A stretch of 64,000 nucleotides of DNA, from positions 397,911-461,910 of the forward strand of contig CAYSSX010000001.1 in assembly GCA_964434115.1 (NCBI GenBank), in the 5' to 3' direction. The position numbers were made by a program, and so were the translations under genes. The stretch is from an uncultured bacterium (lineage in GTDB: Bacteria > Omnitrophota > Omnitrophia > Omnitrophales > Aquincolibacteriaceae). Each line of letters begins with the position of its first letter. Positions within the stretch are counted from its first letter, which is position 1. Below the pieces are notes generated by a model that made no database searches, was not told the DNA's origin, and saw nothing but the letters and a program-made list of their open reading frames with translations. This document shows, piece by piece, positions 3,841 through 38,140 of this stretch.

Positions 3841-4224
3841 ATGCCTATGCCTAACAGAAATTGCTTCCTTCTTTTCCTTCTCTGCGCGGTCTTGTCCGGA
3901 TGCGCTCCGGGTTGTCTCGGCGCGCATATTCACATGGTCCGCGCCGAAGGCGCGTATGACAAGGCCCATGAGATGAGAAAATCCGGCGTTCCTTACACCG
4001 AGCGTTTGACCCTCTACCGCGTGGCCTGCGAAGAAGCGGTCAAGGCCTACAACGCCTCACCTTCGGTCTTTACGCTCAGCCGCATTGAAATCGCGGCAGA
4101 CGCCTGTTTCAGAGTTGAAGATCTTGAAAACCGGGAAATGTTTCTGGAGTTTGAAGCGAGGTATTCAGCGGAACATCCGGATGAAGTCCGCTACGGGGAC
4201 GCCTTCCCGACTCTGGAAGGTTAA
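3841..4224 (+). CDS. putative lipoprotein
   Basis: The N-terminus MPMPNRNCFLLFLLCAVLSGC has an LSGC lipobox. Confidence 0.5.
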   Translation: MPMPNRNCFLLFLLCAVLSGCAPGCLGAHIHMVRAEGAYDKAHEMRKSGVPYTERLTLYRVACEEAVKAYNASPSVFTLSRIEIAADACFRVEDLENREMFLEFEARYSAEHPDEVRYGDAFPTLEG

Positions 4225-4262
4225 AGCCTTTGACAAAGCCGGGAAGGTAGCCCGCAAGGGGT

Positions 4263-4490
4263 TTATTTCACGTAAGAATATTTACGTGCCGGCTGCACGG
4301 TCTGGACCGCGGGATCCACAACCTGAACGGGCTGCTGAGCGGCCATTGCGGCGCGTTCGGCGCGGGCCTGTTCAAGACGGCTGGCAACGTCGATCATCTG
4401 AGGTTCCTTTTTGCTTGCGCAGCCTGCCGCAGCAACGGCAATCAACCCCATCAGAACGGCTGATTTCATCAAATCTTTTTTCGTGCTCAC
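4263..4490 (-). CDS. small lipoprotein
   Basis: 75 aa with an LIAVAAAGC lipobox. An AAAGGAG ribosome-binding site lies upstream on the minus strand (reverse complement of 4495-4510). Confidence 0.5.
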   Translation of the reverse strand: MSTKKDLMKSAVLMGLIAVAAAGCASKKEPQMIDVASRLEQARAERAAMAAQQPVQVVDPAVQTVQPARKYSYVK

Positions 4491-4627
4491 AACTGCTCCT
4501 TTTTCCGGCTTCCCGCCGGTGACTCATGCCTCCTCGCGGAGACGGTTCGAATTGCGGAATTTTACTCCTAATCCCGCAACTTTTCTTCTACTTTTTTATG
4601 CGAATGCGGAAATTCCCGGCCTTCGCG

Positions 4628-5401
4628 CTACCCGTGGAAGAAAAAAATAAAGGCCAGCGCCAGCAGGATCCGGTAAACCCCAAAGGCTGTAAACCCGTGG
4701 TTCCGGATATAGCCCATCAGCCACCGGATCGCCAGAATGGCCACCCCAAAAGAAACCAAGGCCCCAATCCCAAGCAGGGTCCATTCCTCCGGCAGAAACG
4801 AGTGGGAGCTTTTCAAGAGGTCTAGTGCCGTGGCCGCCAGCATGGTCGGAATGGCCAGCAAAAACGAAAACTCCACAATGGTCTTCCGGCGCAGGCCAAG
4901 AAACATTCCGCCGACAATGGTCGCGGCCGCGCGGGAAACCCCGGGAATCATGGCCAAAGACTGAAAAACACCGATCAGGACCGCCGTCTTATAGGGAATG
5001 CGGGCCAAATCCTCCACAGATTCTTCCTTTTCCCGGAAAAGCCTTTCAAAAACAATCAGGAAAATGCCGCCGAGCAGCAGGGACGCGATCACCACCGTCT
5101 CCCCTGCCAGCAGGTATTTTTTTACGATTTTATACAGGATGAGCCCAAGCACGGCCGTGGGGATAAAGGCCGCGCAGACACGCTTGAACACCTCAAAATC
5201 CACGAGCAGACGGCGCCAGTAAAGAACAAGGACAGAAAAAATCGCTCCGGCCTGAATCGCAATTTCAAAGCTCTTGAGAAACTCCGTCTGCTCAAGCCCC
5301 ATCAGACGGCCTGATAAAATAAGATGCCCGGTCGAAGATATAGGTAAAAACTCCGAAATCCCCTCAACAATCCCTAAGACCACTGCGTGTATCCAATTCA
5401 T
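4628..5401 (-). CDS. uppP: undecaprenyl-diphosphatase (UppP/BacA)
   Basis: 257 aa with eight predicted transmembrane segments and the family motif VEGISEFLPISSTGHL near the N-terminus. Confidence 0.9.
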   Translation of the reverse strand: MNWIHAVVLGIVEGISEFLPISSTGHLILSGRLMGLEQTEFLKSFEIAIQAGAIFSVLVLYWRRLLVDFEVFKRVCAAFIPTAVLGLILYKIVKKYLLAGETVVIASLLLGGIFLIVFERLFREKEESVEDLARIPYKTAVLIGVFQSLAMIPGVSRAAATIVGGMFLGLRRKTIVEFSFLLAIPTMLAATALDLLKSSHSFLPEEWTLLGIGALVSFGVAILAIRWLMGYIRNHGFTAFGVYRILLALAFIFFFHG

Positions 5402-5685
5402 GCGGATCCTTTCAAAGGTTTTAAATAATAGGGGGGAAGGAGTATGGTATCAGGCCTGTCAACGGGCGGGAAAAGTATTGCTTGCAGGGGTTTTCATTCA
5501 CTGTTAGGCTGAACGGGAATTGAGAGCCAAAACCGGGGAATCCAGGATTCCTTTCTTTTCCTCTCTCTTTGCCGTACCGCCAAAGGGCACACCTCTTCCC
5601 CGTATCCCGGCGGCACCTCAGCACGAGCTGTCAGCGGCGGTTCAAAAATACTCGAAGCAAAGTTTTGAAGTCAAAAGGGATTTTC

Positions 5686-6567
5686 ATGTCAGACGTCATC
5701 GAAAACAAGAACCTTTATCCCCTGCCGGTGAGACGTGTCCGCTGGGTCGGCATTGTGTTCTTTGCCGTGATTCACGCGGTGGGGATTATCGGAGCGCCGC
5801 TGTATATGATTTACCACGGCGTCAGCACTTCGGAATGGATTCTTTTTTTGACCTACACTTCGCTGAGCGGCATGGCCATTACCATGGGTTATCACCGTCT
5901 CTTTGCCCACGCCACTTTCAAAACCGGCGCTGTCATCCGCTTTCTTCTTCTTTACTTCGGAGCTTCCACCTTTGAGCAGACCGCGCTGAAATGGGCCTCC
6001 CAGCACCGCCAGCATCATCAGTTCACGGATACGGAACGCGACCCTTACAGCATTCAAAAAGGGTTCTGGTATGCGCACATGGGCTGGATCATTTTGTGGA
6101 AACACAAAGTCAATTACGACATCGTCAAAGACCTGAGCAAGGACGCCCTGACAAAACATCAGCACGAATATGAAGGGGTCTGGGCCGTGGGAAGCGGCAT
6201 TGTCGTTCCCCTGATCCTTGGCGCGCTCACCGGGCACATCCTCGGCGCGTTTATCCTGACCGTGTGCCTCAGGCTTGTGATCGTGATGAATTCTGCGTTC
6301 TTCATTAACTCTTTCGCCCACACCTTCGGGTCACGCCCTTACGACAAAACGATTTCCGCGCGCGATCACTGGCTGGGAGCTTTTCTGACCAACGGCGAGG
6401 GCTATCACAATTTTCACCACCGTTTTCCTTCCGACTACCGCAACGGCGTGAAATGGTATCACTGGGATCCCAGCAAATGGCTTATTTACGCGCTTTCTAA
6501 GGTGGGGCTTACCTGGGATTTAAAACGCACTTCCGACGAAAAAATACGCTACGCAGAATCGCTGTAA
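5686..6567 (+). CDS. acyl-CoA desaturase (stearoyl-CoA delta-9 desaturase family)
   Basis: Three histidine boxes are present (HRLFAH, HRQHH, HNFHH) together with transmembrane helices. Start MSDVIENK at 5686 is preceded by an AAAAGGGA ribosome-binding site. The listed ORF 5569.. begins further upstream in the same frame. Confidence 0.85.
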   Translation: MSDVIENKNLYPLPVRRVRWVGIVFFAVIHAVGIIGAPLYMIYHGVSTSEWILFLTYTSLSGMAITMGYHRLFAHATFKTGAVIRFLLLYFGASTFEQTALKWASQHRQHHQFTDTERDPYSIQKGFWYAHMGWIILWKHKVNYDIVKDLSKDALTKHQHEYEGVWAVGSGIVVPLILGALTGHILGAFILTVCLRLVIVMNSAFFINSFAHTFGSRPYDKTISARDHWLGAFLTNGEGYHNFHHRFPSDYRNGVKWYHWDPSKWLIYALSKVGLTWDLKRTSDEKIRYAESL

Positions 6568-6574
6568 GCGCACC

Positions 6575-9500
6575 TTACGCGGACGCCGCGATCGACTGTT
6601 CGCTGAGCATGAAGGTGTGGAAGGCTTCGAGCATAATCCCGATCCTGTTCTGACTCAGATCAAACGACGCCCCGCCAAACAGGGATTCAAGACCGTACTC
6701 CCGCAGAAGTTCTGCCGGCAGCAAATCCTCTTCAAGCGCCACGGCCAGCGCCAAAAACACTTTGAGCTTCAACAAGGCCGCCCTTTCCAGAGCATTTAAT
6801 TTTGTCAGATCGCCGCTGTGTTCAATGGCCCAAACCCAGTTTTTCCCGCTGACGATTTTTGAATTTCCGGAAAGCGCCACCAGCCCGAGTTTCTTCTGTC
6901 CTGAAATGTCCCGCAGTTTCTCGGCGCGTTCAAGCCGGGCATCCGGCTGGATCCCTTTAATTCCCGCGTTTTGAAAAACCCGGACCAGGCTTTCGGCGAT
7001 ATGAAATTCCCCTTCCAGGGCTTCCGAAGAAGACAACGTCAGCCGGTCAATCCAGCCCGCGGAATTTTTCAGCGCCGCTTCCAGATCAGCGGTCCAGGCC
7101 CCGTCCTTTTCCAGCGGAAGATCCAGCGCGAGATTCACGCGTCGGTCCGGAAATTTACTTTGCAAGCGCTGATACGCCCGGGCAAGCGCCTGGTCCACAG
7201 CCGCCGACGAAGCCTGAATGCGCGCAGCCGCGGATTTCACTTCCGCATCGCGGCGGGATTCCAGATCAAGCATGGCCGACAAAAGACCTGTTTCAACATC
7301 CGTCAGATTTTCCGCCTGAGCGAGCCGATCCACGGCACCGGAATTGACAGGACCGCGGAAAGCCGCATCCGGCGCAAGCCGCTCAGCCACTTCCTTCATA
7401 TCCCCGATGCTGTACAAAGCCTCCGGCGCCGCCTCTCTCAATTCGGAGCGGTTTCCGGGCTGCGTATCAATCGCATAGTTGATCAGCCTCAGCCATTTCT
7501 GGGTGCCTGTGAGGTTCACCGCGCCCCTGTCTTTGACCGCGCGCTCCGAAGTCCTGTTGCGGCTGTTCTCAATATCCAGAAAATAACCGCCTTCAACGTC
7601 GAGCGCGAAACGGGCATAGCCGCCGGGCCCAAACTGATCATCCAGGAAAACAAATTTTTTCCGGCCCGTATGATTCTGGAAATGACGCGTGGTTTCAGCC
7701 TTATTCATACGCCCTTCAAGCGGGTGATAGGTGGGCACTCCCTCCGGAGACATGACCACAAAAATCATCGGCGTCCGGCCGTCTTCCCGGTCCACATACT
7801 CGCTGGCCACCCTGCCGTACCCGCCAAGGTGCTGTATCGCATCCGCACGGCCGACTTCTTCAAGGCGGCTAAGAACCGGGTAAAAAACCCTTCGCCGCAT
7901 TTCATCCGCGGAGTTTAGCGTATTGACCACCACCGGAACGCCCCGCACCAAAAGCCTGACAATTTCATCCGTGGTCCGGGGTTCCATTTCAAGCGTCTGC
8001 GGGTGATGCGTCAAGGTGCCGTCCATATCGACCATCACAAAACCTTTATCAGAAAAGTCCCTGACAAAGCGCGCAATCTCCTCGACTTTCTGGCGCTGTT
8101 TGACTTCGTGCTGCGCCATCATAAAAAGCTGGAGCGTTGCAATCAGGCTCTCTGCCGGGGCCTGACGGAAAACCGGCTGGCGCGCTTTCAACGAATCCTC
8201 CGGCGCGTAATAAAAAAGCCGGTAATGTTCCAGCGCCGCCATATCATCCGCATCCGTGATATCGGTGAATTGATAGCTTGCGAGCACGGCGCCGGAGTGC
8301 GCGCCGATCCGCTGATAGAACAGCGGCGCTTTTTCCTTTTCAAAATGAAGGACCGCTGACGCGATAAAAAATTGCTGCGCGCCCTGAACACCGATATCGA
8401 CAAACTGAAAAGGGCCGGATCCCGGAAACAGCCTGCGGAAGTCTTCGTAAATCTCCCGGGCCTTGAGCGCGAAAACATTTCTCTCTTCCAGAACCTTGAG
8501 CTGGCTTGTATAGAAGCGCAGAAGAGCTTCCCCTTCAGGTGTTTTTTCATCCCTCGGCCGGTTAATTTTCTTGAGGATCTCGTCCGCGAGCTCTTTCTGA
8601 AAGGTTCCTTCGGACATTTCGCGGTCAAACAGACGGCTCAGATTCGCGTAAAAGAGCGCGGGATTTCTCTGCTCCAGCTTATAAACCGGCGTGGTATCCT
8701 CGGCCGCGGCCGCGGCAAGAATTTTCCGGGTCACGGTATAGACAATCCCCTTGGACAATATTTCTTTCACAATCAAGGCAGAGCGCTTCAGGGGATCGGG
8801 TCTATCCACAAACTTTCCCGTATCGTCTTCGATGGGAAGGTTTGTCATTTTCATGAGCTCTTCGCTTAAAGGATATTCTTCGTCCGACAAGAACCGGTAG
8901 CGGTTCATGGGATAAACCGCCGCGTGTTCAAGGTCTGTTTCAAAGGCCATTTCATTGACGCCATCGCCTCCGAGGTAAATCCGGGTCAAGCCCTCCGGCT
9001 TGTCAAACCCTAACATCATCAGGATGCGGTGATTCAGCTCAGCCGCACGGCCTGAGACATCGTAGTAGCGTTCTCCGGTCAAAAGCTGATTGCTGCCGCC
9101 CAGTCTTTTTTCCAGCCAATGCCGGATTTTTCCTTCCTGTGAGACAAGGTCATCCTCTGACCAGGTTTCCCGTGTCAGCTTGACCAGTTCACGGCTCACA
9201 CGGGACACGTCCTCCGCTCCGCCGGTTTCCATTTCCTTGGTCAGCGCCAGCGCCTTGTCCGTGTACTCCGCGAGGCGCGCTTCCAAGGCCGGGTCCAGTT
9301 TAAAATTCGATTCCTGATAAGCGGAACCAAGCTGAATCGTGGGATCATATTCGTGGTCCACAATCGTCATCTCCCGCGTGGGCGCGTTGACGGCCGGGCC
9401 AATTTGAAAATCCGTATCATCCAGGGAGGCTGGTTCGGCCTCCACAAACTCCGCGCCATAGTATTCCTCGATCCTCTGGATTTCCTGAATCACCCTTGCC

Positions 9501-28260: not shown

Positions 28261-28375
28261 CCGAAACCGATTTCGGGTTTCGGCAATAGGTGAAATAGCT
28301 GAAATGGCTTTTCATTTCAGCATAAGGTGAAGTGAAAACTCCGGCCTTAGGGAGTTATCACTTCATCGCGCGAGG
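28261..28375. repeat. bipartite hairpin repeat element (variant with a class-2 second hairpin)
   Basis: Perfect palindrome CCGAAACCGAtttCGGGTTTCGG, then CAATAGGTGA, then the hairpin GCTGAAATGgcttttCATTTCAGC, then ATAAGGTGA, then the stem AGTGAAAACTCC / GGAGTTATCACTT with loop GGCCTTAG, then CATCG. Confidence 0.65.
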
Positions 28376-28421
28376 AGGCCTGCTGAAGATAGGATTTTTC
28401 GGGACTGGCGGGGCAGAGACA

Positions 28422-28479: not shown

Positions 28480-28986
28480 TTACTTTTCAGTCTTGGCCCA
28501 GATCTCCTTAGCCTTGTTCATTTGCCCCTCATTGAGAACGGCCCTCAGCTTGGCGTAATCAGCGAGTGTCGCTTTGGCCGAGGTCGCCCAACCGGCTGAA
28601 GCTTGATCAATGAACGCATTTAAAGCCGCCATATCCAGCACGGGTTCTGACATTTTATCCATCAGATCCATCTGGAAAATTTCCATCTCCGCCTTGGAGC
28701 GGATCATGGACTTCTTGGTCGTGCTCTTAATGGCCTTGATCTGGGAGACCTGATCGTCAGAAAGCCCGATCGCTTCCTTGTTGGAAAGGAAGAATTTTGC
28801 CTTCTTCATGATTTTCGCGGCAATAGGACATTCCCCCTCGCTTGAACAATCGTCCCCTTGATCGCACCCTTTCTTGTCATGAAAGGAGCAGCGCCCGCCT
28901 TCACATTCATGATTCGCAAACGCGGGGGCTCCAAGAAGAGACAACATCATCAACAAACCCAGCAAAAATCCAATCGACTTTTTCAT
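28480..28986 (-). CDS. ZraP/CpxP/Spy-family periplasmic protein with an N-terminal Cys-rich metal-binding segment
   Basis: Signal peptide, then a Cys/His cluster (HECEGGRCSFHDKKGCDQGDDCSSEGECP), then two LxxxQ helical motifs (LSDDQVSQIKAI and LNEGQMNKAKEI) typical of the ZraP/CpxP heavy-metal-resistance family. Confidence 0.6.
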   Translation of the reverse strand: MKKSIGFLLGLLMMLSLLGAPAFANHECEGGRCSFHDKKGCDQGDDCSSEGECPIAAKIMKKAKFFLSNKEAIGLSDDQVSQIKAIKSTTKKSMIRSKAEMEIFQMDLMDKMSEPVLDMAALNAFIDQASAGWATSAKATLADYAKLRAVLNEGQMNKAKEIWAKTEK

Positions 28987-29093: not shown

Positions 29094-29513
29094 TCAAATC
29101 AGGAGAGTGCGAAAAAGCAGAAAAATCGGCTGCGGCGGAAGCACATCCCTGCCGGAAACCGGAGCAAAAGAAACCTGAGGAACTTGAAAAACTGCAGGCA
29201 CTGAATGCTCTGCGGCTGAAAACGCATTTAAAGAAGCACTGGGAACAATCCCTTGAAAGCGCCCGGCTTGTTCAGCCGCCGAACTGTGGTAAAAGCACTG
29301 GCCGGCGCAATCATTCCCCGCTTTCGCAGTCTTTTTGGCGCAGCAGTCATGCCCGGAAACCGCCATTTGATGGCCTTTCGGAGCTGTTTCAGACGCGTGC
29401 GCGCAGCGGCAAAACGCCGGGACAGCCGTGAAAATAAAAAAAAGCAGCGTAAAAATCGCTGCTTTTCGCTGGCCGCTAAACCGGGATTTAGGAAAGGGTT
29501 TTATCGCTTTCAT
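29094..29513 (-). CDS. small Cys/His-rich membrane-anchored protein, copy 2 (paralog of 18912..19343)
   Basis: Start MKAIKPFPKSRFSGQRKAAIFTLLFFIFTAVPAFCRCAHASE. It shares the RKAA(V/I)FTLLFF, C.CAHA.E, HDCC.K and C-terminal (I/L)(F/Y)(L/V)LFR(T/S)LLI blocks with copy 1. The listed ORF extends to 29549. Confidence 0.5.
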   Translation of the reverse strand: MKAIKPFPKSRFSGQRKAAIFTLLFFIFTAVPAFCRCAHASETAPKGHQMAVSGHDCCAKKTAKAGNDCAGQCFYHSSAAEQAGRFQGIVPSASLNAFSAAEHSVPAVFQVPQVSFAPVSGRDVLPPQPIFLLFRTLLI

Positions 29514-29553
29514 AGTGGACAGGCTAACCCTGTTCTTAAAACAAGTCAAGCAG

Positions 29554-29831
29554 CCGATTAGTTTGAGGGCAAGCCGAGGCTTGCCCCTTACTAATCGGCA
29601 ATAGGTGAGATGTTAATCTCATGCACCTGGGGATTAACATCTCATCGTCGAGCCAGCTGAAATAGCTTTTCATTTCAGCACTAGGTGAAGTGAAAACTCC
29701 GGCCTTAGGGAGTTATCACTTCATCGCACGAGGAATAACTGTAAGCTTCAGGCGGGAATGCAGCCGGTAAGCACCGCTTACCGGCAACAGGTGAATATTA
29801 CTCTCACGCTTCTGGGGAGTAATATTTCACC
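29554..29831. repeat. dense array of bipartite hairpin repeat elements (two class-1 units and one class-2 unit)
   Basis: Palindrome 29554-29597; a class-1 unit at 29598-29646 (CAATAGGTGA, stem GAGATGTTAATC / GATTAACATCTC, loop TCATGCACCTGGGG, CATCG); hairpin 29655-29678; a class-2 unit at 29679-29731; palindrome CCGGTAAGCaccGCTTACCGG at 29764-29784; a class-1 unit at 29785-29831 (CAACAGGTGA, stem ATATTACTC / GAGTAATAT, loop TCACGCTTCTGGGG, TCACCG). Confidence 0.7.
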
Positions 29832-30830: not shown

Positions 30831-30874
30831 CCGAAAATAAGAACTTTTCGGCTTTGGTACCCGGTACCTTTTTT
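30831..30874. terminator. bidirectional terminator between two convergent genes
   Basis: Hairpin CCGAAAAtaagaacTTTTCGG (30831-30851), then palindrome GGTACCcGGTACC (30856-30868), then TTTTTT (30869-30874), which overlaps the stop codon of the minus-strand ATPase gene. Confidence 0.5.
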
Positions 30875-33203
30875 ACACATCAGCTGCCCCGAAATACATA
30901 TCTTTAAAACTCAAACGGGATGTATTTAAACCATATTTTTGAAATTTATATCTCATAAAGGCAGACATTTTATCCTCGTGAGTTGATAAAAATATCTGTC
31001 GGTCAGAAAATTCATTCCTTAGCAAATCAACCAAACTCGATATGTTTAACTCATCAAGCGTCTGAACAGGATCATCAATAAACAACATTTTATTCTGAGA
31101 GTATCTTTTATTTAGAGTTAAAGTAAAAGCTAAAATCAAAACCGCTAATTGCCCGGAACTCATTGTGAAAATTGCATCATAGGATTTCTTGGGGTCGGGT
31201 AAAAACCTAATGCCATTTTTATCAGAAATAAATAACCCCATCCCCTCTTGGCAGTCCTGAACAATCCGCCCCGAATATAAATGAAATAATATTTCAATAT
31301 CAGCAATAATTTTTCTTTGATACTCCAAAAGGGATTTCTCGTAAATCCTCTTAAGCTTATTTAGCCCATCCTTCATCTTTGAGGCATTCTCGAAGCGCCC
31401 CTGACTTTCATCATATTCTCTCTTTCGATCTTTTAAAGATTTACTCTGATGTAATGAATACTGCCATTTAATGTACTCTTTTTTCTCATCAATATCTTTA
31501 ATACTTATTTCCCTAACCAATTCTGATTTCTCATTAAAAAATTTCAGAAAAATGTCGGCAAAATACGGCTTTATCTTTGTCGCGTCTAAAGGTCGCTTTT
31601 GTTCTACTAATGCTTTTTTTAGAGATGCTAACTTTGAATCCAAATTCGATTTGGGCTCATCCAAATCCTGAACAATAATACCCTTTTGACGCAATTGCTC
31701 ACCAATAGCTATAAGTGTAGATTGATTGCGAACCGCAGCTTGAAGCCCAGCTACAAAAACCTCATCAATGGGGTTGCTAATTAAATAATCATTCAACATT
31801 TTCTTAATGGGGATAATGAACTCGGCCTCGAACCTTTCAACCAGTGATTTTAAATCTTTACCGGATTCTTCCGTTAATTTTCGAAAGCGATTCTGTTGAA
31901 CTTCAATTTGAAGCTTTAATACATCTAATGACACCCAGTCATGTCCGCACATCGGGCATTCTGTTTCTTTGCTTAATTCCGTAAAAGCAGTAAATATTCG
32001 AGCGAATGAGCTTCTGGAGTCTTCTAACTTAGCCACAATTTCTGAAAATTTATTTAGTGACGCGGATTGCTCAGCAATATTTTGCTTTACGCGATCATAT
32101 GCTTTAAAATCAATTTGATGAGATAAAACAGATTCAACCCTTGCTAAAACCACATTCTTGTCCAACGCAAATTTTAAGGTACCCTTATCAAACTCCGCCA
32201 AGATTCTTTTGATCTCCTGACGAATACTCAATTTATTCACATAAAGTTCAACATCATTTAAATGCTTCGAATACAAAATTATTTGTTTTAGAGAGGCCTC
32301 CTGACCGATCAAACCATCTAATTCGCGGTTCCTTTTCTCCTGTTCGAAAATATCAATATTACCTATAAGTGATTTAACTTTTTCCAACAAGCCATCTTCG
32401 CCAATCCAGCTAGCATACTGACCCTCTTTAAATTGCACTTGTTGTCTATCCCAATCAAAGTCGCCCCACGCGAAAAGCTTCGCGTATGCCACCTCGCGAA
32501 TATCACCTAACATCTCCGCCTCAATCGCTTCTATTTCTTTTTTTAAGATTTCTAGTCGGCTAGATTCAGCAGCGCCGCACAGTTCGCCGATCTTCGAAAT
32601 CGAATCTTTAATTTTATCTACTTGATTTTGGAAGCTAAGAGTATTGAACAAATAATCAATAGCATCTTTTCTTTCTCGATCTTTACATTTCAGCAAAGCA
32701 ATATTCTCTTCCTGCTCTACGTAATGGAGAAAACGAAAATTCTCACGGTAATTTAACCCTAACAACTCTTTCAAATAATCATTTTCATTCTTTACCAAAT
32801 TGCCTTCTGTAGCTTCAAAAGCTGTCAGTTCATATAATGGAGAGACGAATTCAGATATCCTCGTCTTTTGAGATAGCTCCAAACGAGTACTCTTCCTCAT
32901 CAATATTCTATCCTTACCATTAGCTTCGATTACGGCTTTGATAATAAGGTCACCGTCCTTGCGCCTACTATTTAAATAAGGATTTTCAGTAAAACTCTCA
33001 CGCCCATCTGTTGCAAGCTTGGCCCATTCTTCATACCTACGAATTTTCCCAGTAAGGAGTAGCTCCATAGCGTCAAAAAATGTGGTTTTCCCAAAGCCAT
33101 TCGGACCATCAAAAATAATAAAGTCCGAATCGTTAAGGTCAACCGAAAACGTTTGAAAAACCTTAAAATTTTCTATGTGAAATTTTCTAATTTTAATGCC
33201 CAT
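30873..33203 (-). CDS. SMC/Rad50-like ABC ATPase with a long coiled coil and a central CPxC hook (LmuB-like, Lamassu/ABC-3C-type defence ATPase)
   Basis: Walker A GPNGFGKTT; ABC signature MSSGQ; Walker B MLFIDDP; H-loop STHE. About 500 aa of coiled-coil sequence lie between the head halves. ETECPMCGHDW is encoded at about 31935-31967, at the midpoint, like a Rad50 zinc hook. The preferred start is MGIKIRKFHIENFKVF at 33203; the listed ORF starts at 33218. The gene is low in GC. Confidence 0.75.
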   Translation of the reverse strand: MGIKIRKFHIENFKVFQTFSVDLNDSDFIIFDGPNGFGKTTFFDAMELLLTGKIRRYEEWAKLATDGRESFTENPYLNSRRKDGDLIIKAVIEANGKDRILMRKSTRLELSQKTRISEFVSPLYELTAFEATEGNLVKNENDYLKELLGLNYRENFRFLHYVEQEENIALLKCKDRERKDAIDYLFNTLSFQNQVDKIKDSISKIGELCGAAESSRLEILKKEIEAIEAEMLGDIREVAYAKLFAWGDFDWDRQQVQFKEGQYASWIGEDGLLEKVKSLIGNIDIFEQEKRNRELDGLIGQEASLKQIILYSKHLNDVELYVNKLSIRQEIKRILAEFDKGTLKFALDKNVVLARVESVLSHQIDFKAYDRVKQNIAEQSASLNKFSEIVAKLEDSRSSFARIFTAFTELSKETECPMCGHDWVSLDVLKLQIEVQQNRFRKLTEESGKDLKSLVERFEAEFIIPIKKMLNDYLISNPIDEVFVAGLQAAVRNQSTLIAIGEQLRQKGIIVQDLDEPKSNLDSKLASLKKALVEQKRPLDATKIKPYFADIFLKFFNEKSELVREISIKDIDEKKEYIKWQYSLHQSKSLKDRKREYDESQGRFENASKMKDGLNKLKRIYEKSLLEYQRKIIADIEILFHLYSGRIVQDCQEGMGLFISDKNGIRFLPDPKKSYDAIFTMSSGQLAVLILAFTLTLNKRYSQNKMLFIDDPVQTLDELNISSLVDLLRNEFSDRQIFLSTHEDKMSAFMRYKFQKYGLNTSRLSFKDMYFGAADV

Positions 33204-33900
33204 TTTGATCACCTTCAAAAAACGGCCATAACAATTTGTAAAATTCGCTTGGCTTCATATTTTTTATATCACCCGATGAGACTTTATCGAGTACCGTCAT
33301 TAGCGATTTATTAACGTCTAGCATTCCATCTTTAGCCAAGGCCTTGTCATGCTCCTCAAGTAATGATTGCAGCCCTTGAGACTCACCAATATTAATTTTT
33401 ATGAAAGGCAATTTAATTGCTAATCGATAGATTAAAGATTGCCATGTTTTTACATAGGGATCATTTTTATAGTCATCAAATATTTGCTTAGAAACAATGC
33501 CGTCCTCTATGAATTTCGCGATGTCTCTTTCTGCAATTTGGTTTTGTAATTGCTGCAACTCTTTAGCAGCATAACCCAAAACATACTTTTTAAAAAAATA
33601 CGGGTCTTCCTCTATTTTCATTTTATTTTTTTTAAACTGTTCGCGCGGCACGCTTCCATCTGTTTCCCACAGCACCAACATCGAAAGATTTTTATCAACT
33701 CCAGGTTCAGAGCAAATTTTCTTACACTCGTTAAAATTAAAAGCCTGTTGCTCTAAAACCGAATCGATTTTGTCGGTTACTTTTATTACAAGCCAATACT
33801 GTTCGCGATTTTCGTTGGCACTCTCACAGAAAAGTCCGTTTTTAAATTCGAAAGTTTTAAATCCGTACCGCTCGAAAAGGATTTTTGTCAGCTCAAGCAT
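33193..33900 (-). CDS. small protein encoded between effector and ATPase (LmuC-like/middle component), function unknown
   Basis: 235 aa. It overlaps the upstream gene by 8 nt and the downstream ATPase by about 11 nt, consistent with a three-gene operon. It is low in GC and has no catalytic motifs. Confidence 0.5.
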   Translation of the reverse strand: MLELTKILFERYGFKTFEFKNGLFCESANENREQYWLVIKVTDKIDSVLEQQAFNFNECKKICSEPGVDKNLSMLVLWETDGSVPREQFKKNKMKIEEDPYFFKKYVLGYAAKELQQLQNQIAERDIAKFIEDGIVSKQIFDDYKNDPYVKTWQSLIYRLAIKLPFIKINIGESQGLQSLLEEHDKALAKDGMLDVNKSLMTVLDKVSSGDIKNMKPSEFYKLLWPFFEGDQNGH

Positions 33901-35176
33901 TGATAATTCCTTTCGCTTCAGCCAAAGGGATTAATGCGATTTTTTTCCATAATGTAATGCGATTATATTCGCTGGCTTTTTGAGAGTCATTTTTTGCTGT
34001 ATCTAAGACGTGAGGGGCTTTATCGGTAATAGAATCCACTTTTATATCGGTTGTGATTAGATTATCTCTTTCATAGCTAAGTCCCAAATCTGTTCGCAGG
34101 GCATTTTGAATGATTTTTTCACAAATAGCTGCATCATGGCTTGGACCGGCTTGAATAGCTGTCGGATAGTAGCGCTCAGATGCGCTCAAACATTCAAATA
34201 CGGATTTAGCTTCTTTAAAATCTAGCTGTTTAAGCTCGGCTAAGATTTTAAAAAAAGCACCCTGCACTTCCGATTGGATTAAAGTGTGGTTATGATAATC
34301 CGTTATCGAGTCAAATTTTATTTCTCGATGAGGTGTTATATTTTGAATGAAGGTCACAATGCTTTTAGTATCTAATTTTTCTATCGTCTCAAAGTAAGAA
34401 GCCATTTTTTTACAAAGTTCAGAATCGCTAAACTTTTCACAAAATTCCAGGTAATACCTGCGAAAATCCATTCGAATCAAATATAAAAAATATTTAGCAT
34501 CGCCACTTTGACTTAAGTTAGCATTCAAAATTGATGTAAATTCGGTCAGGTTTATTTTTTCTCGAAAAGCAACGGCGGCCATACTTCCTTTACTTTTTTG
34601 ACCCATCGCATGAATTTTCAAAACCCTGTCGTGGACAAGTTCAAACAAGAAGACCTTAACCTTCTGAATATAAGCGCTGTCACATCTCCAAGACTTTTCA
34701 GGTTCTGGAGAATGTTCAGAAAAATACTTCCTCACTTGTTCTTCTATTTTTGAATCAATGCCATCGACAGGACATTCATACCTTTCCTCATACTTGTAAA
34801 CCTTGACGGGGGAGAATTCAGATTCTATTTCACTAATAGGTTTGTTCGTAATCTCATTAGCCAAATGAAAAAAGGCGCGATCACAACCGTATTCAGAAGC
34901 GCGATTTTTTAATTTTTCAAAAGCACTATTTCCAGCCGAATCGTTATACCCACTAAAAGGTCCTTTTGCATGCGCTTTCACTTGGTGAAGAGATATTATT
35001 TCGTTTTCTTTTTTCAAAAGAGCAAAATCCTCTAAAGAATCTAATTGGAGATAGCAATCTTCCTGGGGGCGTTCGCACAAGGTCTTGATGACGTGATATA
35101 TAGCAACTTTCCCTTGATACACATAACCGCTCCATGAAGGAATTGCGGTATCTGGGAAGGCGGAGGCTTCGGGCAT
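33893..35176 (-). CDS. LmuA-like effector with an N-terminal Cap4-type (DUF4297-like) PD-(D/E)xK nuclease domain
   Basis: The N-terminal roughly 90 aa read SWSGYVYQGKVAIYHVIKTL...LQLDSLEDFALL...IISLHQVKA, which fits the GxxYQ ... E.(E/D)D ... QxK pattern of Cap4/LmuA nuclease domains. The roughly 330-aa C-terminal region is of unknown function. It lies 3 nt downstream of the preceding gene. Confidence 0.55.
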   Translation of the reverse strand: MPEASAFPDTAIPSWSGYVYQGKVAIYHVIKTLCERPQEDCYLQLDSLEDFALLKKENEIISLHQVKAHAKGPFSGYNDSAGNSAFEKLKNRASEYGCDRAFFHLANEITNKPISEIESEFSPVKVYKYEERYECPVDGIDSKIEEQVRKYFSEHSPEPEKSWRCDSAYIQKVKVFLFELVHDRVLKIHAMGQKSKGSMAAVAFREKINLTEFTSILNANLSQSGDAKYFLYLIRMDFRRYYLEFCEKFSDSELCKKMASYFETIEKLDTKSIVTFIQNITPHREIKFDSITDYHNHTLIQSEVQGAFFKILAELKQLDFKEAKSVFECLSASERYYPTAIQAGPSHDAAICEKIIQNALRTDLGLSYERDNLITTDIKVDSITDKAPHVLDTAKNDSQKASEYNRITLWKKIALIPLAEAKGIINA

Positions 35177-35179
35177 TAT

Positions 35180-36436
35180 TTATTCTTCCTTTGTATCATC
35201 GACTGGTAACTCCAATGGTTTTATTGCTTGAAGCGCATTACCAGCTAACCCCTCTAGATCCCCATACATGCCAGCCGTATTTGAGACGATTCGTTCAATT
35301 TGCTTTTGCCTTTTATCCCAAATGCGTTGCATGGCTCTTTTTTCGGCATCGAGATCTTCCTGCATAGTTCGGAAAGCTTCGATAATCGCTGTAACCTTAT
35401 TCCGAAATTCCGAACCTGTCACATACCGATAAATTAGTTCTTTTTTATCATCTTTGCTGCTTTCAATTTCCCGCGCGGTAGCCACTTGTATTAAAACCAT
35501 TCTTAACGCCAAAGCGAGGCTTAACGCAGAGGGAATGTCCGTTACCCACACGTCTTGTATTTGTCTAAAATGATGAAATCCCGGAGGAAGCGTTTCTGAT
35601 ACTAAAACAGACAGATCTGCTTTAGCTTCTCGCTGATCGTCTTTAAGCTTTAACAACCAAGATTCAGTCCAGTTCTTAGCCCGTTTGGTTTCCCAAAGGA
35701 TTTTTCCGCATACACGACCCGATTGCGTCCTGACAGTCTGTAAAATATCCCCGCCACGAACCCCCTTAGAAACCGGTTCAATTTCATCAAAAGGAAATTC
35801 TCGTCTGAAAGCAGCCTCAAGCTCAAGCTCTAATACTTCCCCCTGTGTTTGCTGCGAACCTTGCTCCATTTTTCGTTTAAGATCCTCAATCTGTTTTAAA
35901 GCGTCTGTTAACTTCTTTTCTTTTTCCGCATCCTTAAGCTTGTGCTGCTCTTCTAAACGGACAAACAGAGCATGCTCTATCTTCGCTCGTTCCTCATCAA
36001 GCTTTCTTGCCATATCCAACTCCAGAGATCTTTCCTTCTCTTCGAGTAAGTGTTGACGTTTGCGCAACTCAACTTCGTTATCCTGCGCAACCTTCAAACG
36101 CGCTCTCGCGGCATCAGCCTGCGCTTTCAGGTCTGCGAGCTCGACATCAACTGCTTCTTTGGCTTCCTTCTGAAGCTTTGTCTCCAATAACTTTCGTTGT
36201 TCTTTAAATCTCTGTTCTATTTCTAGCTCTCTTTGCACCAGCGCTTGGCGTTCGGCTTCGATTTTAGTTGCAAGCGATTTGTCTTTTTCCGCCAACTGTG
36301 ACCGCAAAGCCGCTTTTTCTTTATCCAAGGCCTGAAGATACTTTTGACGAGTTCTCTCTTCAATATCATGAGAAAGAGCTTCGGTAAGTGGTATTAGCTC
36401 ACCACATTTGGGACATTTAATTGATTCTTGGGCCAT
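35180..36436 (-). CDS. DUF2130-like protein: N-terminal zinc ribbon, long coiled coil and C-terminal PD-(D/E)xK-like nuclease fold
   Basis: CPKCGELIPL zinc-ribbon at the N-terminus, then about 200 aa of Glu/Lys/Arg/Leu-rich coiled coil, then a C-terminal GGDILQ...ILWETKRAKNW motif (D...ExK). Confidence 0.55.
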   Translation of the reverse strand: MAQESIKCPKCGELIPLTEALSHDIEERTRQKYLQALDKEKAALRSQLAEKDKSLATKIEAERQALVQRELEIEQRFKEQRKLLETKLQKEAKEAVDVELADLKAQADAARARLKVAQDNEVELRKRQHLLEEKERSLELDMARKLDEERAKIEHALFVRLEEQHKLKDAEKEKKLTDALKQIEDLKRKMEQGSQQTQGEVLELELEAAFRREFPFDEIEPVSKGVRGGDILQTVRTQSGRVCGKILWETKRAKNWTESWLLKLKDDQREAKADLSVLVSETLPPGFHHFRQIQDVWVTDIPSALSLALALRMVLIQVATAREIESSKDDKKELIYRYVTGSEFRNKVTAIIEAFRTMQEDLDAEKRAMQRIWDKRQKQIERIVSNTAGMYGDLEGLAGNALQAIKPLELPVDDTKEE

Positions 36437-36457
36437 ATTATCCTTCGCACATCTCGG

Positions 36458-37357
36458 TCAAATGATGGTTGCGTTTACTCTATCTATAAGCTGTTTCTTT
36501 AAATCATTCTCTTCTTCCCATAAAATGTGACTGAATTGCCGCGTATCAAAATGCAGGGTCTCGCCTTTTTTGCAAACCCAGATTACTTCTTTACCGATTC
36601 CTTTTGCATACCCCGCTTCGTAGTATGCACTCGGACGTTCACCGCTTAACTCAGCAACTACGAACTTGCTCTTTTTTATACCCGAAATTATCAGATTTGT
36701 TACATCATCGTTTGTTTGCTCACCTTTAACACGATATGCCTCATAGCCACAAGTGGCCAGCGCTTCAGCAATCTTTTCATAGGCAAAATCATAATTAGGT
36801 GAAAAATTCATAGCAACAAAACACAATCTCGCATTTACATTTATTTTTTCTAAATCATAAAAATGCCGCCATCCCGTCATTGTTAACCTGTATTCGAATA
36901 TAGAGCTTGCTGCACTTTTCGATCTACCCTCGAACAGTTTTTCAGACATAAGATATTTAAGAATATCTGACAATTCTTGTGCGCTGGGTGAAAAAGTCAG
37001 CGAATAATCATTATCGCGATCAATATCTATATATTGTCCAAACGCATTACTCTTTTTGCCAATATATGTAACTATTTTGTCAATTTTATCCGGAACTTTG
37101 CGGGGTATATCCGCACCATTTAGAATACCGCTGATACTTTCCGTAGTAATAAGAATAGTATTCGCGTTGCGCTCTGTTCGCCACCGCAGCACGCCAGAGA
37201 TTTCAGCTCTTCGCTCTGTTACTGAGCCTGCTAAGCAAGATCCCGTTATAGAGTACTTACCGCATCTTTTACATTCGATATGAAAGCAATCCCTTAGAGG
37301 CTCACGATCGAATTTCGAGTATTTCTTTCCGCAAAACGGACAGTTGTTCTCAGTCAT
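36458..37357 (-). CDS. zinc-ribbon protein with a C-terminal nucleoside 2-deoxyribosyltransferase/Rcl(DNPH1)-like domain
   Basis: The N-terminus has two Cys pairs (CPFCGKKY...CFHIECKRCGKY). The C-terminal domain aligns with the Rcl/NDT fold: LCFVAMNF...Y...I, then FVVAELSGERPSAYYEAGYAKGIGKEVIWV (compare VVAEVTQPSLGVGYELGRAVALGKPILCL), then WEEENDLKKQLIDR. Confidence 0.6.
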   Translation of the reverse strand: MTENNCPFCGKKYSKFDREPLRDCFHIECKRCGKYSITGSCLAGSVTERRAEISGVLRWRTERNANTILITTESISGILNGADIPRKVPDKIDKIVTYIGKKSNAFGQYIDIDRDNDYSLTFSPSAQELSDILKYLMSEKLFEGRSKSAASSIFEYRLTMTGWRHFYDLEKINVNARLCFVAMNFSPNYDFAYEKIAEALATCGYEAYRVKGEQTNDDVTNLIISGIKKSKFVVAELSGERPSAYYEAGYAKGIGKEVIWVCKKGETLHFDTRQFSHILWEEENDLKKQLIDRVNATII

Positions 37358-37408
37358 TATCAGCCTTCGTTTTGAACGTTATCACTTTCCAAAAGCACCG
37401 GGTTCAAC

Positions 37409-37984
37409 TTAAGCTTTTCTTGAAGGCACTTTTTTATACTTTGCCTTCATGAACTTATTAAAGTGAGTTGTGTACCTGTCATGAAAGCACACTTTGAAGA
37501 TTTGCTTGTATGAGATCGAATAATCCTTTTCCCATGTAGCATCCGCGTCGTAACAGAATATTTTAAAACTCTCATCATGCATTTCAACAACTGGGCCGAC
37601 ATAAAACGCAGAATCTTTTCCGTTAGCGGATAGGGCTTCTATCCCGGGCCAAACTTGCCGTTTTTGACATTCTTTAATTACTTCCTTCAAAGATTCGCAT
37701 CTATCGACCCATCCAGGAATTTTCAATTTGTTAATGGCACCGTTAAACCTGATAATTTTGTTGTAGCAACTCTCAAAACGATTATCCCTGAATCCTTTGA
37801 TAAATCGCTTGGCCAAGATTGTAACGCCATCAAACTCCAACTCATCCATCTGAGCTAAAACAACAAAGGTCTGAGTTTCCTTTAACACGACTCCATCGTA
37901 ATGATCTCCATCCGGATGCCTTGTTTTAAGGCGGATAACCCATTTCTTTTTTAGCGATTTGCAGTAAATGTCAGATAGTTTCAT
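37409..37984 (-). CDS. hypothetical protein, first gene of the low-GC island operon
   Basis: The ORF extends to 38137, but the first roughly 50 codons are GC-rich flank-like sequence. The start MKLSDIYCKSLKKKWVIRLK at 37984 matches the island composition. No recognisable motif. Confidence 0.4.
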   Translation of the reverse strand: MKLSDIYCKSLKKKWVIRLKTRHPDGDHYDGVVLKETQTFVVLAQMDELEFDGVTILAKRFIKGFRDNRFESCYNKIIRFNGAINKLKIPGWVDRCESLKEVIKECQKRQVWPGIEALSANGKDSAFYVGPVVEMHDESFKIFCYDADATWEKDYSISYKQIFKVCFHDRYTTHFNKFMKAKYKKVPSRKA

Positions 37985-38140
37985 TTTCTTACGTACACTT
38001 TCCAAAAGTTCCGGGTTCAGTCTGGGTCTTTGCACCTGAACAAAAAGTTTTCCGCCGCGAGTTCCGCAGGCGCGCAGCGACGAGGACTGTCTGAGCGCCG
38101 GAAAAGCTTTTTGAGAAGGTGCTGACGCCTCAGCCATCCA

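Follow-up and report, generated by a model that had tools for sequence, protein, structure and literature searches.

An intact three-gene operon in a low-GC island, very probably a long-type Lamassu system with a predicted Cap4-type nuclease

Genes at the locus

Within the window, a 64,000-nucleotide stretch of DNA, the ORF listing contains three overlapping minus-strand reading frames (33893-35176, 33193-33900 and 30873-33218), to which we assign the names lmuA, lmuC and lmuB. They form the distal half of a low-GC island of six co-directional minus-strand genes.

30850-38020, no strand: low-GC island of 7.2 kb, delimited by composition profiles and ORFs
33893-35176, minus strand: lmuA, 427 aa from an ATG; predicted effector with an N-terminal Cap4-type nuclease and ABC-3C C-terminal domain 1
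33193-33900, minus strand: lmuC, 235 aa from an ATG; middle component
30873-33203, minus strand: lmuB, 776 aa from the ATG at 33203 or 781 aa from a TTG at 33218; Rad50/SbcC-like ABC ATPase with a coiled coil, long type

The overlap between lmuA and lmuC is 8 nt; that between lmuC and lmuB is 11 nt if lmuB starts at the ATG and 26 nt if it starts at the TTG. The sequence GAAGGTGA precedes the ATG at 33203. The LmuB product recorded at NCBI (P0121) has 776 aa, which corresponds to this ATG, so an earlier sequence-only reading of the locus was right to give the ATPase about 777 aa.

The A-C-B gene order is conserved across 82-84 independent loci in Bacteroidota, Campylobacterota, Desulfobacterota, Gammaproteobacteria and Omnitrophica, often adjoining restriction-modification (R-M), nSTAND or integrase genes. 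LmuA has 126 homologues and LmuB 341. Because each has many homologues, their order is kept in these loci and key residues are invariant, the three reading frames are not chance ORFs. In the databases searched, the highest identity to another protein is 54% for LmuB and 89% for LmuA. Where the sources name the homologues at all, they use 'hypothetical protein', 'AAA family ATPase' or 'SbcC'; the window's own three proteins are unnamed in the sequence collection.

Composition profiles place the GC content of the island at 33-47%, against about 54% in its flanks; besides the trio it carries three further genes that were imported. Of these, the one at 35180-36436 lies directly upstream of lmuA at a distance of 3 bp and encodes a DUF2130 protein with a Zn-ribbon, a coiled coil and a PD-(D/E)xK domain. 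The window contains no tRNA gene, profile scans of the six island proteins gave no integrase-like match, and no direct repeats flank the island.

Conserved features of the three proteins

LmuB matches the PADLOC LmuB model over its full length (7e-64, 215 bits). A Lamassu ATPase is expected to have an ABC head split by a coiled coil, and this is the arrangement found, with the following motifs.

33081-33107, minus strand: Walker A GPNGFGKTT (aa 38-46; G38-K44 invariant)
32712-32723, minus strand: Q-loop region YVEQ (aa 166-169; Y166 and Q169 invariant)
31935-31967, minus strand: zinc-hook motif ETECPMCGHDW (aa 418-428; C421 and C424)
31149-31163, minus strand: ABC signature motif MSSGQ (aa 686-690; S687, G689 and Q690 invariant)
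31068-31088, minus strand: Walker B MLFIDDP (aa 711-717; D715, D716 and P717 invariant)
30975-30986, minus strand: H-loop STHE (aa 745-748; T746, H747 and E748 invariant)

K44, Q169, C421, C424, D715, D716 and H747 are all invariant in alignments which, for LmuB as for LmuA, span 23-54% identity. The helices that separate the head halves span about 460 aa in the AF2 model (aa 194-652), close to the roughly 500 aa of coiled coil first estimated, and the CxxC, CPMC at 421-424, sits in a turn between helices 371-415 and 431-481. Beside the two invariant cysteines, G425 and W428 are conserved in at least 90% of sequences. In each of the 118 full-length homologues a single CxxC occurs, at relative position 0.534 +/- 0.005, and 115 of them have a DD Walker B. 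Most ABC ATPases carry a catalytic Glu at the position of Asp716. Full-length homologues measure 706-790 aa (median 772); the family is populous and uniform.

A Rad50-like ATPase of this kind could in principle be a housekeeping SbcC/Rad50, RecF or RecN with unrelated ORFs upstream, and a best match of that sort was the outcome that the sequence-only reading had named as counting against its proposal. The result went the other way, with the LmuB profile far stronger than SbcC. The SbcC profile TIGR00618 reaches only 19.6 bits on LmuB against a cut-off of 478.5, and the RecF profile 48.8 bits against 172, over the N-terminus only. In a profile control, genuine SbcC and SbcD from related loci passed or approached their own cut-offs; on the LmuB model genuine SbcC scored 52-73 bits, three to four times lower than the 215 bits obtained here. 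Furthermore, a profile scan detected no Mre11/SbcD metallophosphatase in the island, the trio sits in low-GC DNA and the upstream genes belong to ABC-3C-specific families (CTD1 and MComp1) that accompany the ATPase at over 80 loci. We consider a housekeeping identity extremely unlikely. More remote still is membership of another defence system with an ABC ATPase, such as Gabija GajA, PARIS AriA, Septu PtuA, MADS mad3 or PrrC/RloC: most such matches are confined to the P-loop N-terminus (about aa 9-60 to 9-87) or to the C-terminal lobe, all have E-values at least 50 orders of magnitude weaker than the LmuB match, and the partner genes of these systems are absent.

The features of LmuA and LmuC are as follows.

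34808-35176, minus strand: LmuA, predicted Cap4-type PD-(D/E)xK nuclease domain (aa 1-123)
35024-35044, minus strand: LmuA LDSLEDF, with putative catalytic D50 (aa 45-51)
34976-34990, minus strand: LmuA LHQVK, with putative catalytic Q65-x-K67 (aa 63-67)
34043-34807, minus strand: LmuA ABC-3C C-terminal domain 1 (CTD1; aa 124-378), presumed docking and oligomerisation module
33517-33798, minus strand: LmuC MComp1 domain (aa 35-128), followed by a C-terminal extension of about 105 aa

LmuA matches the PADLOC LmuA model PDLC03848 (4.9e-25, aa 9-376). Its N-terminal domain contains GYVYQ (aa 17-21) and supplies the acidic residue and (E/Q)xK motif sought in a catalytic site of this type as D50, Q65 and K67, which are invariant in an alignment of 48 sequences. 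The lysine equivalent to K67 in V. cholerae LmuA, K57, is essential (PMC12663957). Against Pfam Cap4_nuclease (PF14130, formerly DUF4297) LmuA scores 20.5 bits (E 6.2e-4), short of the gathering score of 26.2, in an alignment that spans the catalytic region (aa 16-73); half of the LmuA homologues (24/48) match this family at E<=0.01, the best at 6.5e-7. The AF2 model (pLDDT 86.7) has S. enterica LmuA (9hr5) as its best Foldseek match. A Cap4-type assignment calls for a fold that resembles Cap4-family nucleases more closely than generic restriction-endonuclease folds, and this is what we observed. Motif positions in LmuA and LmuB, including that of the hook, were exactly as first described.

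As in Lamassu effectors generally, the effector domain is fused to an ABC-3C C-terminal domain. CTD1 (PF20276) is matched over profile positions 1-243 of 243 at 1.3e-43 (149.7 bits, above the gathering score) and occurs in 48/48 LmuA homologues. The modelled C-terminal domain consists of helices and five beta-strands, with strands at 319-338, 372-375 and 414-417. At 427 aa, LmuA is longer than the solved short LmuA chains (304-391 aa).

Lamassu also has a small middle component encoded between lmuA and lmuB, and lmuC occupies this place. LmuC carries Pfam MComp1 (PF20289; 2.4e-12, 47 bits, gathering score 27.3), and in 83 loci lmuA and lmuB are separated by an LmuC-homologous ORF. The proposed PADLOC check bore out LmuA and LmuB, both matched over their full length, but no PADLOC model matches LmuC, even at E<=10.

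Class, neighbouring genes and proposed mechanism

Long Lamassu systems are defined by an LmuB of about 800 aa, a Walker B of the form hhhhDD and exactly one CxxC (Haudiquet et al., PNAS 2025, PMC12663957), whereas short LmuB proteins average about 600 aa and have hhhhD[Q/S/T/E] (PMC12663957). In that work long LmuB also forms a clade that branches nearer to SbcC than short LmuB does. We assigned the type by LmuB length, Walker B and CxxC count, following that definition. The protein here has 776-781 aa, LFIDD at aa 712-716 and a single apical CxxC, and so agrees with the long type on all three counts. Profile, structure and synteny agree with the original proposal of a Lamassu (ABC-3C) operon that encodes, in this order, a Cap4-type nuclease effector, a middle component and an SMC/Rad50-like ATPase bearing a CxxC hook. 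Two parts of that proposal did not hold. The proteins are not too divergent for a subtype, given their LmuA and LmuB profile matches and the long-type features; nor is there support for treating a CPxC hook paired with Cap4 as an unclassified variant, since long LmuB proteins always have one CxxC and Cap4 is listed among long Lamassu effectors (PMC12663957). A 2023 review (PMC10586767) had already described many LmuB proteins as carrying CPxCG hooks and named Cap4 as a frequent effector in LmuA.

A short-type (type II, DdmABC-like) or truly unclassified system would share the gene order and effector family of V. cholerae DdmABC, and could draw on the fact that the best PADLOC LmuB model is just 611 positions long and that solved Lamassu chains are out of reach by sequence: PDB sequence searches with single proteins or profiles reached none. 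The length of LmuB, its invariant DD and the uniform length of its 118 homologues, together with the agreement on all three published features, make this reading very unlikely. We conclude that the trio is, with high probability, an intact three-gene Lamassu of the long type, directed against phages or plasmids, with a predicted Cap4-type DNA endonuclease effector, acquired horizontally in a small low-GC defence island.

Given the 3-bp spacing to lmuA, the DUF2130 protein, a member of the PD-(D/E)xK superfamily (PMC3424549), might be a functional Lamassu accessory, a second nuclease or DNA-end processor, making this a four-gene variant. In 4/84 loci a DUF2130 gene runs in the same direction as the operon at close spacing, upstream of lmuA in the window, L001 and L012 and downstream of lmuB in L044; the Lamassu proteins of the other three are just 28-46% identical to those of the window, so these loci are not copies of one island. 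Similarly, sbcD-sbcC, a pair of nuclease and coiled-coil ATPase, fills the flanking slot in five other loci (upstream of lmuA in L010, L027, L042 and L058, downstream of lmuB in L059). By contrast, about 95% of loci in this Lamassu clade are without DUF2130, and none of 80 metagenome DUF2130 loci carries this lmuA or lmuC, including that of the closest relative (73% identity). The neighbours of DUF2130 vary, from an OLD-family ATPase with AIPR, hsdS and AAA_13 to housekeeping dfp and gyrA, and unrelated neighbours of the trio recur equally often (hsdS in 7 loci, Mrr-nSTAND3 in 8). GC content also differs, at 42-47% in the window's DUF2130 gene against 33-41% in the trio. An accessory role for DUF2130 is thus unlikely. 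The broader idea that long Lamassu-Cap4 operons repeatedly recruit a co-transcribed DNA-end-processing module beside the trio, either DUF2130 or sbcD-sbcC, is only slightly less doubtful. If it were true, the recruited modules might create or trim the DNA ends sensed by LmuB, the window would hold a four-gene variant, and sbcDC-lmuACB blocks could be seen as physical remnants of the proposed descent of Lamassu from SbcCD.

For the three-gene long Lamassu, we propose a mechanism whose steps follow cryo-EM and biochemical work on short Lamassu (10.1101/2025.03.14.643221; PMC12663957; 10.1101/2025.06.23.660979). It is an extrapolation, because the Lamassu literature cited here contains solved structures for the short type alone, and the one long system with demonstrated defence is that of B. 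cereus B4077, whose effector is a hydrolase-protease (PMC12663957). The single CxxC hook, at the tips of the antiparallel coiled coils, would join two LmuB chains into a dimer, as motif, conservation and the monomer model suggest. By analogy with short systems, the dimer and LmuC would hold one LmuA as an inactive monomer until ATP-bound heads close on a DNA end, free or abnormal, that phage or plasmid replication has produced; this would release LmuA. Released LmuA may then tetramerise through its C-terminal domain, and its Cap4-type site (D50, Q65-x-K67) would cut DNA indiscriminately, so that infection is aborted. On the basis of published AlphaFold3 models, the probable docking site of LmuA and LmuC in the long type is close to the LmuB heads, in the manner of SbcD on SbcC. 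ATP hydrolysis is probably slowed by the Asp-Asp of Walker B.

The practical value of these results is in annotation, as the three proteins can be named LmuA, LmuC and LmuB of a long system with a Cap4 effector; nothing here would be unexpected to a specialist. The trio is also a compact, fully intact candidate for experiments on long Lamassu, a class in which no Cap4 system is reported solved or tested in the Lamassu literature cited here. Such a system could be used to ask whether the effector of a hook-bearing, SbcC-like long Lamassu is held at the heads in line with predictions from published AlphaFold3 models, and whether the Asp-Asp Walker B alters ATP control.

Comparison with known systems

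The trio is a new example of the already described long Lamassu and not a new kind. It resembles long Lamassu-Cap4 (PMC12663957) in its LmuB of about 800 aa with hhhhDD and one CxxC, in A-C-B order, in its defence-island setting and in a Cap4-type LmuA; set against the published description, it may also do so in a helix-and-sheet LmuA C-terminal domain and in an LmuC longer than in short systems. We found no difference.

V. cholerae DdmABC (Lamassu Vc-Cap4; short, type II) is a partial parallel. The comparison made by the sequence-only reading stands just for gene order and effector type; the putative catalytic lysine and the predicted abortive-infection logic agree as well. DdmABC is of the short type: its LmuB, DdmC (653 residues in the solved chain 9uxl_A), lacks a zinc hook, its Walker B is not DD, and its LmuA C-terminal domain and LmuC come from other, shorter families. 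DdmABC has a solved structure and a demonstrated function, whereas the trio here is known from sequence and models.

S. enterica LmuACB (short; cryo-EM 9hqx, 9hr5 and 9hqu) likewise has a PD-(D/E)xK nuclease as LmuA, sequestered as a monomer and active as a tetramer, the scheme proposed here; its LmuB has a zinc hook that is required for defence, and LmuB here has a predicted one too. The B. cereus B4077 system shares the long LmuB class but uses its hydrolase and protease pair in place of a Cap4 nuclease.

SbcCD/Mre11-Rad50 differs in its partner, the Mre11/SbcD nuclease, where LmuB has the ABC-3C proteins LmuA and LmuC. The coiled coil of LmuB is about 200-270 aa shorter than that of SbcC (the E. 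coli-type SbcC model has 1047 positions, and the genuine SbcC proteins in L010, L042 and L058 have 1053-1265 aa), and its Walker B reads DD, compared with DE in SbcC.

A Lamassu operon in an AT-rich island

The three co-directional open reading frames (ORFs) that a sequence-only reading had described as a Lamassu-like module were all recovered, and every motif it quoted was found in place, including ETECPMCGHDW at 31935-31967. Composition profiles show no part of the window richer in AT than the trio, whose GC content is 33-41% versus about 54% in the flanks. Long ORFs arise least readily by chance in sequence of this kind. The observation is confirmed.

Features of the low-GC island
~30850-38020, minus strand: low-GC island with six co-directional genes (ORFs and composition)
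30873-33218, minus strand: lmuB ORF, 781 aa from a TTG codon (ORF listing)
33193-33900, minus strand: lmuC ORF, 235 aa (ORF listing)
33893-35176, minus strand: lmuA ORF, 427 aa (ORF listing)
35180-36436, minus strand: DUF2130 gene, 3 bp upstream of lmuA (Pfam, 5.4e-71)
36458-37357, minus strand: gene for a 299-aa protein, upstream of lmuA within the island
37409-38137 (more probably 37409-37984), minus strand: orphan ORF, 242 aa (ORF listing)

lmuA and lmuC overlap by 8 nt, and lmuC and lmuB by 11 nt (26 nt counting from the TTG). LmuB has 776 aa when read from the ATG at 33203, which follows GAAGGTGA, and this is the NCBI product on record.

Profile searches support the Lamassu identity of all three proteins. 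The ATPase matched the PADLOC LmuB model (PDLC03859) over its full length (7e-64) and carries Pfam SMC_N and AAA_23 domains; the 427-aa protein matched PADLOC LmuA (4.9e-25) and contains the ABC-3C C-terminal domain CTD1 (Pfam, 1.3e-43); and the 235-aa protein contains the ABC-3C middle component MComp1 (Pfam, 47 bits against a gathering score of 27.3). The competing possibility, that the ATPase belongs to a housekeeping family, was not borne out: it scored 19.6 bits as SbcC against a cut-off of 478.5 and 48.8 bits as RecF, over the N-terminus only, against a cut-off of 172. As a control, genuine SbcC proteins of related loci scored 52-73 bits on the LmuB model, compared with 215 bits for the window ATPase.

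Searches of the PDB with the single sequences of LmuA, LmuB and LmuC returned nothing informative. A profile of 48 LmuA homologues reached only spurious designed TIM barrels, through a short 'D-AI-D...QVK' resemblance. With a profile of 41 LmuB homologues, the matches were to Rad50 heads and PtuA, and no solved LmuB was among them. Solved Lamassu chains were thus out of reach of PDB sequence and profile search, so that fold comparison was needed.

The LmuB hook and the LmuA effector domain

An alignment of 41 LmuB homologues (32-54% identity) shows, among other invariant positions, C421 and C424, those of Walker A, Q169, S687/G689/Q690, D715-D716-P717 and T746-H747-E748. The 118 full-length homologues (706-790 aa, median 772) each contain exactly one CxxC, at a relative position of 0.534 +/- 0.005, and in 115 of them Walker B ends in Asp-Asp. 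In an AlphaFold2 (AF2) model of LmuB (pLDDT 82.3), the two halves of the head lie at about 9-190 and 655-780, and CPMC sits in a short turn joining long helices 371-415 and 431-481. The modeled placement of CPMC is that of a Rad50 hook.

Both coiled-coil arms of this model are broken by non-helical segments, at aa 237-266 and about 512-552 (~32421-32510 and ~31563-31685). Invariant W256 and D257 fall inside the break of the N-terminal arm, and G276 just past it. The predicted break could be a conserved elbow or docking site, a feature absent from descriptions in the Lamassu literature covered.

The first 139 residues of LmuA, searched alone, gave a sub-threshold match to Pfam Cap4_nuclease (E 6.2e-4; 20.5 bits, gathering score 26.2), with an alignment spanning GYVYQ...LHQVK. 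Across 48 LmuA homologues (23-89% identity), CTD1 was present in all and Cap4_nuclease matched 24; D50, Q65 and K67 are invariant in their alignment. Foldseek ranked the S. enterica LmuA first, and in a further fold comparison Cap4-family nucleases came above ordinary restriction enzymes. The Pfam score of the window LmuA is insufficient alone, and the proposed Cap4 effector is upheld mainly by fold and family context. These results support a predicted Cap4-type nuclease as the N-terminal domain of LmuA.

Neighboring genes and other features of the window

The DUF2130 protein encoded next to lmuA has an N-terminal CxxC ribbon, a long coiled coil and a C-terminal domain of the PD-(D/E)xK superfamily. 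DUF2130 adjoins long Lamassu in 4 of 84 loci: the window and three other loci distantly related to it (DUF2130 at 6849-7985 in L001, 6794-7984 in L012 and 12254-13504 in L044). We judged a dedicated partnership with Lamassu unlikely and treat DUF2130 as a separate island gene, because lmuA and lmuC were absent from all 80 DUF2130 loci taken from metagenomes and the neighbors of DUF2130 vary. These are often defense genes: an OLD-family ATPase with AIPR and an Eco57I-type methylase (locus L089), AAA_13 (L109), hsdS (L108) or a 1025-aa AAA_23 ATPase (L120). A search of viral contigs did not find DUF2130. It looks like an uncharacterized gene that tends to reside in defense islands, with a small residual chance of its being a Lamassu accessory.

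The 299-aa protein carries two CxxC pairs at its N-terminus, and its C-terminus resembles a TIR or nucleoside 2-deoxyribosyltransferase domain (PADLOC TIR effector, 1.7e-11; phrog_16139, 7.6e-35; Pfam PF05014, 25 bits, below threshold). Its family is small, with 50 matches, nearly all metagenomic and unnamed. The three homologues examined lie in unrelated phage-like or mobile-genetic-element-like contexts without a conserved partner or a link to Lamassu, and we rejected the gene as a Lamassu partner. It may be a stand-alone defense or counter-defense gene.

Pfam, NCBIfam, PADLOC and PHROGs returned no match to the orphan ORF at 37409-38137. A direct repeat of 24 nt, TGAACCCGGWRCTTTTGGAAAGTG (minus strand), occurs at 37383-37406 and 37996-38019 (two copies; chance alone would give 0). 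The start of the 299-aa gene is 26 nt downstream of one copy; the other lies inside the 242-aa ORF, exactly at the drop in GC content and 12 nt upstream of an internal ATG at 37984. Given this position of the repeat and the GC drop, the true product is probably 191 aa (MKLSD...). The repeat may be a regulatory element common to the two genes, or mark the boundary of a cassette. We found no tRNA gene in the window, no integrase-like match among the six island proteins and no direct repeats flanking the island, the only repeat being the internal 24-nt one. An Rfam scan of the window gave no match, and promoter and terminator scans, which did not exceed what shuffled sequence gives, were set aside.

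Outside the island, three giant ORFs together occupy about half of the window.

Giant ORFs
6575-12706, minus strand: 2043 aa
19618-28119, minus strand: 2833 aa
46039-63897, minus strand: 5952 aa

The 2833-aa product comprises many tandem modules of ~90-100 aa with recurring '...VTLDTKAPEI...' units, and by sequence looks like a surface adhesin. The two copies of an 80-nt direct repeat (28297-28376 and 29655-29734, 95% identical) each lie ~100-180 nt upstream of a minus-strand gene start. One of these genes encodes the 2833-aa product; the other is an ORF of 151 aa, rich in Cys and His, that judging by eye seems to have a signal peptide. Whichever strand is folded, the repeat gives a pair of neighboring hairpins (z -4.5 to -6.0 versus shuffles). 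It has no Rfam match and could be a cis-regulatory RNA or operator; shorter GGTGAAGTGAA-like motifs recur nearby. Small ORFs at 28480-28986 and 29094-29549 adjoin the repeats and resemble, by eye only, periplasmic metal-binding proteins.

Related loci and the place of the operon among Lamassu systems

Among 1.84 billion clusters at 50% identity, the LmuA family had 386 representatives at E<=1e-3, 59 of them also at E<=1e-30. The exact window LmuA was absent from the gene-position index and a single-protein genome scan was empty; an alignment-based pattern scan of one genome per species recovered 80 loci. Combining scan and exact look-up loci, the A-C-B order was kept in 82-84, spanning Bacteroidota, Campylobacterota, Desulfobacterota, Gammaproteobacteria, Alphaproteobacteria and Omnitrophica. 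The usual neighbors are integrases, nSTAND3 NTPases, type ISP enzymes and conjugative-element genes. This distribution and these surroundings are as expected for a mobile defense operon.

In four related loci from Flavobacteriia and related taxa (L022, L024, L025 and L026; ~4100-15400), long Lamassu-Cap4 is nested between hsdM-hsdS and hsdR of type I restriction-modification. In eight loci, an Mrr_cat-nSTAND3 (AVAST-like) gene directly follows the operon (L016, L018, L023, L035, L038, L041 and others; ~12300-14700, in L038 ~8800-11150). A genuine sbcD-sbcC pair directly adjoins long Lamassu-Cap4 and is co-directional with it (gaps of 4-52 bp), upstream of lmuA in L010, L027, L042 and L058 and downstream of lmuB in L059; L008 has an sbcD-like gene 1.4 kb downstream. 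By NCBIfam, SbcC of these loci scored up to 780 bits and SbcD 189-227 bits. Between L027 (Legionellaceae) and L042 (Terrimonas, Bacteroidota), SbcD, SbcC, LmuA and LmuB are 50-68% identical, and from this the block of five genes seems to have been transferred whole from one phylum to another. The arrangement is absent from the window, and the adjacency goes unmentioned where the paper that proposes SbcCD as the ancestor of Lamassu discusses Lamassu origins (section 11).

Our results bear on which genes are present, on the integrity and conservation of their catalytic and structural motifs, on fold relationships and on synteny; the steps of a mechanism are taken from short Lamassu. There, an LmuB dimer and LmuC hold LmuA monomeric and inactive; LmuB heads sense DNA ends under control of ATP binding and hydrolysis, LmuA is released, and an LmuA tetramer formed through the C-terminal domain is the active non-specific DNase that causes abortive infection (10.1101/2025.03.14.643221, PMC12663957, 10.1101/2025.06.23.660979). 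In this long-type member, LmuB would dimerize through the C421/C424 hook, and LmuA and LmuC would probably dock near its heads in an SbcD-like manner, as in published AlphaFold3 models. ATP turnover would be slow because Asp716 stands in place of the usual catalytic Glu.

Haudiquet et al. divide Lamassu into short and long families (PMC12663957). LmuB is ~600 aa in the short and ~800 aa in the long family; Walker B reads hhhhD[Q/S/T/E] versus hhhhDD; and LmuB has zero, one or two CxxC motifs versus always one. LmuC and the LmuA C-terminal domain are longer in the long family, in which the latter consists of helices plus a beta-sheet, long-family LmuB is nearer SbcC in the published phylogeny, and a Cap4 effector is listed for both families (PMC12663957). 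By LmuB length, Walker B and the single CxxC, the window system is assigned to long Lamassu with a predicted Cap4 effector. In the solved S. enterica Lamassu, the hook is required for defense (10.1101/2025.03.14.643221), and a 2023 review had pointed out that many LmuBs have CPxCG hooks and that Cap4 is a common effector (PMC10586767). Because the published class already covers the pairing of hook and Cap4, the suggestion that it marks an unclassified variant is unsupported; the sequence-only reading identified the system correctly and overestimated its novelty. The three genes form a genuine, intact system, and its class is already published. The parallel drawn with the V. cholerae DdmABC arrangement is only partial: DdmABC is of the short type and its LmuB has lost the hook (PMC12663957).
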